Virus record (IMG/VR): IMGVR_UViG_2529292921_000023
Strand: one strand, 5' to 3'
Source of the DNA: a virus
Taxonomy: Duplodnaviria > Heunggongvirae > Uroviricota > Caudoviricetes
Length of the DNA stretch: 18,296 nt
This document shows positions 10,268-12,438 of the stretch, piece by piece. The first letter of the stretch is position 1. Each line of letters begins with the position of its first letter. Both the position numbers and the translations under genes were made by a program. The notes under the pieces were generated by a model. The model saw only the letters and a program-made list of their open reading frames with translations, did no database searches and was not told the origin of the DNA.

Positions 10268-10561
10268 TCAGGAGCGCGATTGCGTTCCTGCCAGGGGCGG
10301 CTGAGTTGTATACCCCTGTAAAGCTCTGCCCTGATTTCTCACAAACAAGCGGAGCCTTGTGTTTGCTTCGTGCCTTGCTCTGTTCTCCTTGCGGAATGAA
10401 ACAGGCTCAGCGTCAAAAGTGATTTCGTATACCTCCGCATATTTCAGGGCGACCTTCCGTCTCAGTGACGGAGGCAGCCCCTGTAACTGCTGCTGAATCC
10501 ACTCTTCGTCTGCCTGGCAGTGCCTAGATGGCATCTCTGTCTGAACGTAATTCTGGGACAT
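10268..10561 (-). CDS. Hypothetical early protein in the cII position
   Basis: 97-aa ORF 12 nt downstream of the cro-like gene on the same strand. Low-complexity C-terminus. No family recognised. Confidence 0.5.
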   Translation of the reverse strand: MSQNYVQTEMPSRHCQADEEWIQQQLQGLPPSLRRKVALKYAEVYEITFDAEPVSFRKENRARHEANTRLRLFVRNQGRALQGYTTQPPLAGTQSRS

Positions 10562-10573
10562 ACAAGCCCTTCA

Positions 10574-10846
10574 TCATTCGTTTTTCATAACTGCCGCATT
10601 TGTGGCTGTGTGACTTCTACGTAACAAATCAGGGATTGCATCTTCAGGATGGGGATAAAGATCTGGTCTTAACCCATGAGGAGTAACTTTCCATTCCACA
10701 ACTTCACATACACGCAAGACGAAACGAGCAGGAATTGTTCTTTTTGAAAACCATTGGTTCACAGCTTGCGGCGTAACGCCTAGATTTCGCGCTATGGCAT
10801 TTTGTGCAATTAGCTCACGAAGTGCGTCGTAATCATTTCCTTTCAT
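10574..10846 (-). CDS. Cro/YdaS-like HTH regulator
   Basis: 90 aa with HTH LGVTPQAVNQW and motif WKVTPHGLRPDLYP recalled as typical of YdaS-like Cro proteins. Divergent from the CI-like repressor. Confidence 0.7.
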   Translation of the reverse strand: MKGNDYDALRELIAQNAIARNLGVTPQAVNQWFSKRTIPARFVLRVCEVVEWKVTPHGLRPDLYPHPEDAIPDLLRRSHTATNAAVMKNE

Positions 10847-10980
10847 CGCAACCCACCAATCTAAACTTTATAAATTCAAGATTACATCAAGTTTAAATTA
10901 ACATGCAAGTCCACAAAAGATCGAATACACTAAAATCAAGTAAAAATTTATCGAAACCAAGTAACCAGCAAGGATTAACA
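10847..10980. promoter_or_regulatory. Immunity-region divergent promoter/operator (OR-like)
   Basis: AT-rich 134-bp spacer between divergent cro-like and cI-like genes. Repeated ATCAAGT-type motifs at 10887-10893, 10935-10941 and the variant ACCAAGT at 10956-10962. Confidence 0.5.
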
Positions 10981-11670
10981 ATGAAAAACTTAAAGAGCAC
11001 TGAAAATCGAATTACAAAGCTGCTACAGGAGAAAGGCTGGAGCCAAGCAGAGCTGGCCCGAAAATTAGGTGTCAGCGCACAGTCCGTACAGTACTGGACA
11101 ACAGGAAAAACATTTCCAAGGGGAAACCGGCTTGCCCAGTTATCCGAAATAAGTGGTTATCCGCAATCGTGGTTTTTAGGAGAAATCACGTCACGGCAGT
11201 TCTCTTCAAAGGAAAAACATCAAGCAAGAACTGACAGTGTGGTCTTTAACGTGCTCGATGTTGAGTTTAGTTGCGGCGATGGAACACATGTCCGTGGGGA
11301 CTTTATCGATGTAGTTCGCTCAATCGAGCTTGATCCTGAATATGCCCGTCGCCTTGTTGGCAATAGAGCATTTCAAAACATAGAGATTGGTAACGCAAGA
11401 GGAGATAGTATGGCTCCAACAATAGCCCCAGGAGATCTTCTTTTTCTCGATAAAACAGTGAATTACTTTGATGGTGATGGCATTTATGCTTTTTGCTTTG
11501 ATGGTGAATGCTACGTCAAAAGATTACAAAAGATAGGAAGTAAAATCATGGTGTTATCTGATAACCCAAATTACCAATCCTGGAGCATTGAAAAAGATGC
11601 TCTTGAGCTGCTTTATATCCAATCGAAGGTAATCTCATCTGTTCCATTCAATATAAATAGATTTGGTTAA
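10981..11670 (+). CDS. cI: CI-like repressor (N-terminal HTH-XRE, C-terminal LexA/S24 autopeptidase)
   Basis: HTH (WSQAELARKLGVSAQSVQYW) and S24 Ser/Lys region (GDSMAPTIAPGDLLFLD ... CYVKRL). Start placed at ATG 10981 (AAGGA 6 nt upstream) rather than track start 10903, which has no RBS. Confidence 0.85.
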   Translation: MKNLKSTENRITKLLQEKGWSQAELARKLGVSAQSVQYWTTGKTFPRGNRLAQLSEISGYPQSWFLGEITSRQFSSKEKHQARTDSVVFNVLDVEFSCGDGTHVRGDFIDVVRSIELDPEYARRLVGNRAFQNIEIGNARGDSMAPTIAPGDLLFLDKTVNYFDGDGIYAFCFDGECYVKRLQKIGSKIMVLSDNPNYQSWSIEKDALELLYIQSKVISSVPFNINRFG

Positions 11671-11732
11671 TTATTGATTATTAAAGAAAAATTTACAAAT
11701 CAAGTAAAAGAGACGCAGAAATCAATTTTTTC

Positions 11733-11811
11733 TTGACAACTCCATCAATCAAGATCTAACATCACACCATCAATTTTGACTTGATTTATTGTTAATTTTA
11801 AATTGATGGTG
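11733..11811 (+). promoter_or_regulatory. pL/OL-like promoter-operator region for the early-left operon
   Basis: TTGACA (11733-11738), 18 nt, TAACAT (11757-11762). Perfect 11-bp inverted repeat CACCATCAATT (11765-11775) / AATTGATGGTG (11801-11811) flanks a second candidate promoter TTGACT-17-TAAATT. ATCAAG-type motifs recur. Confidence 0.45.
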
Positions 11812-11816
11812 ATTCA

Positions 11817-12245
11817 ATGAAAGATCTGACAACCGCTGAGATATCGAACTTAAACCACTTCGAAAAAGAATCCTTTGCATTAAATATTGCAAATCTGGTA
11901 GGTGCTGCTCGTACTTTCCATTTAATTGATGGTGATCGCTCTAAAGAATTGGGGTTTGAAGTCATGGAGTTTGTTCATGAATACGCCCTGTCTGCTACTT
12001 ATCCATTACATAATCACATAATCAACAAACAACCAAATAAAATCCGCACCCAACGCGAAGCCTGCGGCTTAACAACCGCCGAACTCGCCAGGCTGCTCGA
12101 TCTCGATGAAGAAATTATCATCCAGTGGGAAAGCGGAGAGTACGAACCAACCATCAGCATGCTTATCCCTCTGGCTAATGTTCTTGGCTGTGATCCAATG
12201 TTGTTATTGACTGATGCTTATAAACAAAATCAGGAGGAAGCATAA
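11817..12245 (+). CDS. Hypothetical protein with C-terminal HTH-XRE domain; first gene of the pL-like operon
   Basis: 142 aa. C-terminal HTH (LTTAELARLLDLDEEIIIQWESGEYEPTISMLIPLANVLG). N-terminal ~80 aa unassigned. Confidence 0.6.
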   Translation: MKDLTTAEISNLNHFEKESFALNIANLVGAARTFHLIDGDRSKELGFEVMEFVHEYALSATYPLHNHIINKQPNKIRTQREACGLTTAELARLLDLDEEIIIQWESGEYEPTISMLIPLANVLGCDPMLLLTDAYKQNQEEA

Positions 12246-12246
12246 G

Positions 12247-12438
12247 ATGAAAATGTTCAAAGGCCTTACCAACGAACCGGAGACAGCTTTTCATCACATT
12301 GCCGTACTGCTTGAAGCGGGGTTAATCATTTCGGCTTCCGGTGATGAAGAATGTGATGAACTTTCGGATGATATCTTTTTACTGGCACAACAATACGCCA
12401 AAAGCGCATGCGATGCATTTAAGGAGCAAAGAACATGA
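12247..12438 (+). CDS. Small acidic hypothetical protein (63 aa)
   Basis: AGGAGG 8 nt upstream of ATG 12247. Track start 12214 overlaps the previous gene and is less likely. Stop overlaps the next start (ATGA). Confidence 0.5.
   Translation: MKMFKGLTNEPETAFHHIAVLLEAGLIISASGDEECDELSDDIFLLAQQYAKSACDAFKEQRT

Follow-up and report, generated by a model that had tools for sequence, protein, structure and literature searches.

Predicted operators of a cI-type repressor on both sides of its gene in the immunity region of a phi467-like prophage

Results

A cI/cro-type gene set flanked by two repeat-bearing regions

We analysed an 18,296-nucleotide (nt) stretch of viral DNA (IMG/VR record IMGVR_UViG_2529292921_000023; hereafter the window, meaning this stretch at its full length), in which a cI-type repressor gene is bordered by two intergenic regions, 10847-10980 and 11671-11816, whose recurring short repeats are the subject of this work. 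Positions 10500-12300 share 99.9% identity with Escherichia phage phi467 (LN997803) and with prophages of several E. coli chromosomes, and LN997803 is found among the phages that carry stx2f (PMC8136144). Three genes frame the two regions:

10574..10846, minus strand: cro-like gene, 90 amino acids (aa), transcribed away from cI; YdaS / P22_Cro-type helix-turn-helix (HTH)
10981..11670, plus strand: cI-type repressor gene, 229 aa, with an N-terminal HTH and a C-terminal S24 self-cleaving domain
11817..12245, plus strand: first gene of the pL operon, 142 aa, with a C-terminal HTH_3 domain

The product of the cro-like gene, which is divergent to cI, matches Pfam YdaS_toxin (5.9e-13, 48.9 bits, above the cutoff of 30), P22_Cro (6.9e-5, 23 bits, below its cutoff) and phrog_35. 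The repressor matches HTH_3 (7e-9, 36 bits against a cutoff of 23), Peptidase_S24 (8e-17, 61.4 bits against a cutoff of 23.3) and phrog_4, and it carries Cys98-Gly99, Ser143 in GDSMAP and Lys180 in VKRL, which we take to be the residues expected of a self-cleaving repressor such as LexA, UmuD or the cI protein of phage lambda. Because of these domain matches and self-cleavage residues, the labels cI and cro appear reasonable. An N-type antiterminator was not found as the first gene of the pL operon, which instead encodes a protein with an HTH_3 domain (3.5e-11) and a match to phrog_4836 (labelled 'CII-like regulator', 1e-58), annotated as DicA in phi467. Relatives carry 182-233-aa versions of this first gene, some of them with a second HTH, and unrelated first genes are found in more distant lineages.

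The repeats resolve into a 17-bp palindrome enriched in both regions

The original prediction, made from the letters of the window, had proposed that a sequence of 13 base pairs (bp) present on both sides of cI, together with ATCAAG-type repeats, marks the right (OR) and left (OL) operators of the repressor. The 13-mer, AAATCAAGTAAAA, lies exactly at 10933-10945 and 11697-11709, and a search of both strands of the window returned no other exact copy. The match between the two copies does not extend by any base on either side, and a shared exact match of at least 13 bp arose in 0.5% of 3000 trials when the two AT-rich intergenic regions were simulated with a first-order Markov model. The recurrence of half-sites was likewise borne out, with ATCAAG at 10886, 10935, 11699 and 11748 and CTTGAT at 11780, and four of the seven window copies of the 7-mer ATCAAGT/ACTTGAT fall inside the 280 intergenic bp.

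The recurring unit, first seen as ATCAA-N7-TTGAT from inverted and direct repeats, is a 17-bp palindrome, ATCAAGT-N3-ACTTGAT. Its sites in the two regions are listed below without strand, with mismatches counted out of the 14 palindrome positions:

10855..10871: Oa, ACCAATCTAAACTTTAT, 4 mismatches; nearest cro, degenerate in the window lineage
10886..10902: Ob, ATCAAGTTTAAATTAAC, 3 mismatches; fills the spacer of the predicted pR and abuts the predicted -35 of pRM
10935..10951: Oc, ATCAAGTAAAAATTTAT, 2 mismatches; about -3 to +14 of the predicted pRM, contains the first 13-mer
11721..11737: F (OL), ATCAATTTTTTCTTGAC, 3 mismatches; overlaps the -35 of pL
11769..11785: D (OL), ATCAATTTTGACTTGAT, 1 mismatch, the best site of the window; about +1 to +17 of pL
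11791..11807: E, GTTAATTTTAAATTGAT, 4 mismatches, weak; 22 bp after D, overlaps the ribosome-binding region of the next gene

With up to three mismatches, ATCAAGTNNNACTTGAT has five matches in the 18.3 kilobases of the window against 1.1 expected (0 of 200 shuffles reached five), and four of these five lie within the 280 bp of the two intergenic regions. When only these two AT-rich regions were shuffled, the mean was 0.03 sites against the 4 observed, a number that none of 5000 shuffles reached; with up to four mismatches, 6 sites were observed against 0.26. The fifth match in the window (GCCAAGTTAAACTGGAT, 8766-82, 3 mismatches) lies inside a 552-aa helicase gene and is compatible with chance, about one being expected. 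In a matrix built from 34 distinct site sequences, A4, A5, T13, T14 and A16 are invariant and C3, A1 and T2 nearly so, around an A/T-rich centre. At the centre of D, the window has a G (11778) where phi467 and most near-identical contigs have an A.

The ATCAA motifs could also be read as sites for the integration host factor (IHF), or as mere promoter or AT-rich sequence with no dedicated operator, considering that both regions are 69-75% A+T and that WATCAA is the core of the IHF consensus. However, the two matches of the full IHF consensus (WATCAANNNNTTR) in the window both fall outside 10847-10980 and 11671-11816, the sites have a two-fold symmetry, which is perfect in several lineages, whereas the IHF consensus is asymmetric, and the shuffles that yielded 0.03 sites against 4 were matched for composition. 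We thus regard this explanation as extremely unlikely.

The palindromes lie on promoter-like elements

Three promoter-like elements coincide with these sites:

11733..11762, plus strand: pL-like promoter, TTGACA (11733-38), 18 nt, TAACAT (11757-62); 10/12 in the promoter scan
10881..10908, minus strand: predicted pR, -35 TTGCAT (10908-10903), 16 nt, extended -10 TGaTGTAAT (10889-10881)
10903..10931, plus strand: predicted pRM, weak -35 ATGCAA (10903-08), 17 nt, -10 TACACT (10926-31)

The predicted pR is missing from the promoter-scan list because its -10 has no A at position 2. The ATGCAAG block (10903-10908) would serve as the -35 of both divergent promoters, pR and pRM, so that RNA polymerase would be unable to occupy the two simultaneously. 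Beyond cI, the scan found no intrinsic terminator between this gene and pL (11671-11720) in the window lineage, while a strong one is present in most relatives; transcription of cI may hence continue into the pL operon of the window.

Sites keep position and register in diverged lineages

For comparison, we used 80 viral contigs and two usable loci from genomes, together with four records of E. coli or phages and another two phages, whose repressors form at least six groups at 80-90% identity, with E. coli, Klebsiella and Pseudocitrobacter among the hosts. Repressors about 80-83% identical come from metagenomic viral contigs (L077-L085), from Pseudocitrobacter (L086), from an Enterobacteriaceae genome (L087) and from a Klebsiella phage (L093). 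Genome-scan matches from Bacillota and Desulfobacterota (L088-L092) were left out because their identity, over the HTH, is no more than 36-50%. Wherever the motif is kept, the recognition helix of the repressor is identical or nearly so (GVSAQSVQYWTTG, GVTAQSVQYWTTG or GVSTQTVVYWTKG).

Every repressor group has three OR sites 30-31 and 49-50 bp apart and two OL sites 46-48 bp apart, with F on the -35 TTGAC and D 6-7 nt past the -10 in all of them. As to the conservation of the repeats in related immunity regions, which the original prediction had named as its own test, the sites hold their position and register in at least six diverged lineages while the DNA around them diverges, and the prediction thus withstands the test that might have refuted it. 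The cI-cro intergenic region thus holds three partly symmetric sites that are enriched and conserved in position, their overlap with promoters being an overlap with predicted ones, and a second cluster stands at the early promoter beyond cI, with F on the -35 and D at +1 of TTGACA-18-TAACAT, in all lineages.

The individual sites differ in how they are kept. Ob is nearly invariant across all lineages, from E. coli to Klebsiella and Pseudocitrobacter, and Oc has an invariant left half and a weak right half in all of them. The Oa position reads ATAAAGTATAACTTGAT, ATCAAGTTAAAATTGAC, ATCAAGCTATAATTGAT or ATCAAGTTAAACTTTAT (1-2 mismatches) in L077, L084, L085 and L093. On the other side of cI, F is 100% conserved in the L002 group amid otherwise unrelated sequence and reads ATCAAGTTTAACTTGAC in distant lineages, while the D position holds a perfect palindrome (ATCAAGTTTAACTTGAT or ATCAAGTTAAACTTGAT) in both L077-L087 and L093. 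E reads TTCAATTTAAAATTGTT in the L002 group, that is, other bases with an equal score; at both Oa and E, bases change between lineages and the palindrome match is retained. Altogether, the most distant groups (L077-L085, L086, L087 and L093) have perfect or 1-mismatch palindromes at D and F, and since these groups played no part in proposing the consensus, they support it independently.

The promoter-like elements are kept as well. In all lineages, pL has a -35 TTGACA/G, 17-18 nt and a -10 TAATAT, TAACCT or TATCCT; the -35 block ATGCAAG of the predicted pR is invariant, and its -10 in distant lineages is TATTAT, TATTCT or TATCCT, always preceded by TGa; and the -10 of the predicted pRM (TACACT, TAAAAT or TAAACT) is conserved in position, 3-4 nt before Oc. 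An OR alignment of ten lineages shows the site cores, ATGCAAG and the -10-like hexamer as conserved blocks, and the DNA between sites is scrambled. What these sequences show directly is the motif, how enriched it is, that it stands on promoter-like elements and that it is conserved.

The same comparison bears on the idea that the 13-mer AAATCAAGTAAAA is itself the recognition unit, with one OR and one OL copy acting as the principal operators, arranged as direct repeats. An exact identity over 13 bp is improbable by chance (P ~0.005), and a third copy with one mismatch is present on the other strand at 11775-87. However, the first 13-mer (10933-45) consists of the left half of Oc, preceded by two flanking A's and followed by the spacer and one further base, and only its ATCAAG part is invariant across lineages within Oc. 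The second copy has no right half (AGAGACG stands at 11709-15) and is not among the palindrome matches with up to five mismatches; moreover, it is missing in 4 of 5 related lineage groups, which retain the F and D palindromes and have, at its position, a rho-independent terminator (AACGGGCTTTGCCCGTTTTTTT or similar in L002, L077, L084-87 and L093). Because the OL copy is neither conserved nor equipped with a partner half, the 13-mer was rejected as the operator unit, and we consider it very unlikely in this role; the predicted operator unit is the 17-bp palindrome. Of the two proposed operator copies, the one in OR thus survives as the left half of Oc, and the one in OL turns out to be a lone half-site absent from most relatives.

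Isolated half-sites are lineage-specific

Besides the full palindromes, the two regions of the window contain four isolated half-sites:

10875..10881, plus strand: lone half-site TTCAAGA, 11 bp before Ob
10956..10962, plus strand: lone half-site ACCAAGT, 21 bp downstream of the Oc start; relatives do not keep it as such
11697..11709, plus strand: second 13-mer, with the lone left half-site ATCAAGT (11699-705), 22 bp before F
11748..11754, plus strand: lone half-site ATCAAGA within the spacer of pL, 21 bp before D; window lineage only

All four (10875-81, 10956-62, 11699-705 and 11748-54) have the same orientation and match ATCAAGT with at most one mismatch, except TTCAAGA with two. Their distances from the start of a full operator, 11, 21, 22 and 21 bp, correspond to one or two helical turns, an observation made post hoc on few events. 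ATCAAGA is kept at -11 from Ob in E. coli relatives, not in more distant lineages. A lone half-site upstream of F is found only in the window lineage and in the L056/Stx2_95 lineage, where AAATCAAGT stands about 9 bp before F, and distant lineages have almost no isolated half-sites. Two further candidates were discarded: ATCAATCAAGATCTAAC (11744-60) as a fourth OL site, which would fit a regular spacing of 22-25 bp but has more than five mismatches and is absent from relatives, and AAACCAAGTAA (10954-64) as a conserved repeat, which is not conserved in relatives.

We doubt that the isolated half-sites, including the second 13-mer, are functional. If they were, contacts between proteins could bring in additional subunits of the repressor or of Cro, so that a longer tract would be occupied and the switch tuned in a lineage-specific manner.

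An inverted repeat downstream of pL

An 11-bp perfect inverted repeat flanking the pL-like promoter had also been described. The repeat itself is present, but it is 12 bp long and lies just downstream of the best pL instead of flanking it:

11765-76 and 11800-11, no strand: 12-bp perfect inverted repeat, CACCATCAATTT and AAATTGATGGTG, from a repeat search of the window

What it flanks is a weaker promoter-like match (TTGACT 11776 / TAAATT 11804); this candidate second promoter, TTGACT-17-TAAATT (11776-804), was rejected, as its -35 rests on the window-specific G at 11778. The arms of the repeat correspond to the outer half-sites of D and E plus CACC / GGTG, the latter being the ribosome-binding site. 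A second exact 13-mer repeat, AATTGATGGTGAT, also touches this segment: its copy at 11801-11813 is made up of the right half of E and the ribosome-binding site, and its copy at 11924-11936 codes for LIDGD inside the HTH gene and is not kept in the L002 group, where LLDCAR stands instead.

Another hypothesis is that this inverted repeat forms an RNA hairpin, which would hide the ribosome-binding site GGTGA of the first pL gene in transcripts that contain the 5' arm, for instance by read-through from cI, while transcripts started at pL would lack this arm and be translated. The RNA from 11765 to 11825 folds to -17.5 kcal/mol (z = -4.0), and the fold is stable only for 5' ends no further downstream than 11765; for a transcript beginning at 11769 it is not significant (z = -1.4). 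Such a model needs just this asymmetry. The right arm does contain the ribosome-binding site, and the window lineage has no terminator between cI and pL. By contrast, the comparison of 27 distinct relatives argues against a selected hairpin: the inverted repeat is perfect in only 5 of them; none of its 12 pairs is changed on both sides, so that compensatory changes are lacking; the substitutions disrupt pairing, with two positions unpaired in 22 of the 27 sequences; and the covariation score does not exceed that of shuffles, whose share of paired cells, 82%, is also that of the real alignment. In addition, relatives that have a terminator still keep the inverted repeat, and both arms are already accounted for by operator half-sites and the ribosome-binding site. 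An RNA hairpin is thus an improbable explanation of the repeat. As a companion to functional half-sites, a leader hairpin could nevertheless prevent translation of the first pL gene from read-through cI transcripts in the window lineage, which has lost the cI terminator.

Which protein the sites may serve

Some or all of the sites might belong to a protein other than cI, either to Cro alone or to the downstream HTH protein acting as an autoregulator through D/E and the CACC...GGTG repeat. E and its CACC/GGTG flanks are confined to lineages whose first pL gene encodes the HTH protein, and homologous Cro genes are co-inherited with cI and the operators in every lineage examined. Since Cro co-varies in all lineages, cI and Cro are inseparable by sequence; in known switches, the two proteins use the same sites. 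However, Oa, Ob, Oc, F and D persist where the first pL gene differs, E matches the same palindrome as the other sites, and the placement of the sites on pR, pRM and pL is what a maintenance repressor needs. A purely non-cI assignment therefore appears unlikely to us, although the assignment of E to cI is uncertain and the HTH protein may play a part at that site. Two candidate targets of the HTH protein were tried and rejected: the palindrome CAATTTNAAATTG, which is not enriched (4 matches against 2.1 expected), and the motif CACCATCAAT, whose extra copies lie in coding sequence for FDGD, FDGE and IDGD peptides.

A lambda-type switch is the preferred reading

The gene set, the enrichment and the conservation support the proposal that a repressor uses operator clusters with ATCAAG/CTTGAT-type half-sites on both sides of its own gene. 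It is probable that the repeats mark the predicted operators of a lambda-type prophage repressor and thus belong to an ordinary lysis/lysogeny switch, and we hold it equally probable that the locus is the immunity switch of a lambdoid prophage of the phi467 type, which encodes Shiga toxin (Stx) 2f. From the arrangement of genes and sites we infer the binding protein, the exact promoters and their starts, the activation of pRM and any cooperativity or looping.

In the mechanism that we propose, a dimer of the cI-type repressor would bind 17-bp, partly symmetric operators (consensus ATCAAGT-N3-ACTTGAT, core ATCAA-N7-TTGAT), and the YdaS-type Cro would probably act on the same sites. Repressor at Ob would shut pR and, as this site is centred near -44 of pRM, might stimulate pRM as OR2 does in lambda. 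Oa, in the cro leader (about +4 to +20), may add to pR repression, and Oc, over the start of pRM, may provide negative autoregulation. On the other side of cI, F on the -35 of pL and D over its start would jointly silence the early leftward operon, with E as a possible weak third OL site 22 bp from D. Self-cleavage of the repressor, stimulated by RecA, would then lead to prophage induction.

Several observations weigh against this interpretation. Oa and E are weak in the window (4 mismatches each), and Oa has 6 mismatches in the L056 lineage, making it the least certain site of the window. The likeness to lambda that the original prediction had drawn holds for the two clusters flanking cI and fails for the spacing in OR: adjacent sites are not 23-24 bp apart, the distance that supports pairwise cooperativity in lambda, but 31 bp (Oa-Ob) and 49 bp (Ob-Oc), and 48 bp in OL (F-D), only D-E being lambda-like (22 bp, with a weak E). 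Neither pR nor pRM reaches the threshold of a simple promoter scan, and the pR -10 of the E. coli lineages (TGTAAT) has a G at position 2, where sigma-70 promoters nearly always have an A. The lineages are related, so that part of the conservation reflects shared ancestry rather than selection. Finally, we found neither binding or footprint data nor mapped transcripts in the searchable literature, whether for this repressor or for its close relatives.

Discussion

The predicted switch shares with lambda an HTH repressor with a LexA-like self-cleaving domain, a divergent cro gene and 17-bp partly symmetric operators in two clusters flanking cI, one of them over back-to-back pR and pRM and the other over a pL that is co-oriented with cI. 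The position of Ob, near -44 of pRM, can be compared with that of lambda OR2, at about -42. This arrangement would mimic the logic of lambda, namely to repress pR and pL, to stimulate pRM and then to limit it. The differences are nevertheless many: the operators have an unrelated sequence, the spacing of the OR sites is 31 and 49 bp instead of 24 and 23, the predicted pR and pRM share one -35 region, Cro is of the YdaS type, OL consists of two strong sites that enclose the promoter at a distance of 48 bp from each other and of a weak one, and the first pL gene encodes an HTH protein instead of N.

The closest solved DNA-binding domain is the N-terminal domain of the 434 repressor, a weak similarity (E 8e-4). 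The 434 operator half-site ends in CAAG, which resembles the TCAAG found here. The 434 operators are, however, 14-bp sequences, ACAAG-N4-CTTGT (ACAA-N6-TTGT), unlike the 17-bp ATCAA-N7-TTGAT described here, in which the half-sites are one bp further apart (TCAAG-N5-CTTGA), and the recognition-helix residues are TQQSIEQ in 434 as opposed to SAQSVQY. With both the motif and the helix-3 residues differing, a 434-type operator specificity was not found.

A functional analogue is the switch of the cryptic prophage CP-933P, in which a YdaS-family lytic repressor plays the role of Cro (PMC8630535). In this bistable PaaR2 / YdaS / YdaT system, operators have been footprinted in the divergent intergenic region and at the downstream pL (PMC8630535). 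It differs in that its repressor is PaaR2, its operon includes a toxin-antitoxin pair and its operators are four 18-bp palindromes with the consensus GTTTAGTAA (PMC8630535), whereas the phi467-type system has a self-cleaving cI-type repressor and a different motif. A related prophage of the same immunity type (L004, E. coli 14EC047) carries a ParE-family toxin gene (4339-4557) a few genes downstream of pL, which recalls the toxin-antitoxin pair in the CP-933P immunity region (PMC8630535).

Among Stx phages, the Stx2a phage 933W offers another immunity region whose operator number and arrangement differ from those of lambda; its operators have been characterised experimentally (PMC3317979 and papers cited in PMC4587872). 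Its repressor belongs to a different family. Neither 933W nor any model phage is among the matches listed for the N-terminal domain of the repressor studied here. One study was unable to identify the operators of a cluster of Stx2a phages (PMC4587872); the repressor of that cluster is probably of a different type as well, since it is absent among the matches listed for that domain. We found no description of phi467-type operators in the searchable literature, nor of the operators of any phage of this immunity type.

We thus propose a new operator specificity and a spacing variant inside the well-known cI/Cro class, which is useful for the biology of Stx phages and not conceptually surprising. 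As a natural variant of the lambda switch, with its wider site spacing and its shared -35 for pR and pRM, it is a standard cI/Cro switch in concept. What is gained is a concrete operator sequence and a site map for an immunity type that is common to the Stx2f phage phi467, several Stx2a- and Stx2d-converting phages, other E. coli prophages, a Klebsiella phage and a Pseudocitrobacter prophage. Since the operators and the recognition helix are common to these phages, we predict that phages of this immunity type should be homoimmune, which bears on superinfection and on the presence of multiple Stx prophages per cell. The site map would also provide mutation targets for studying how induction, and hence toxin release, is set in these phages.

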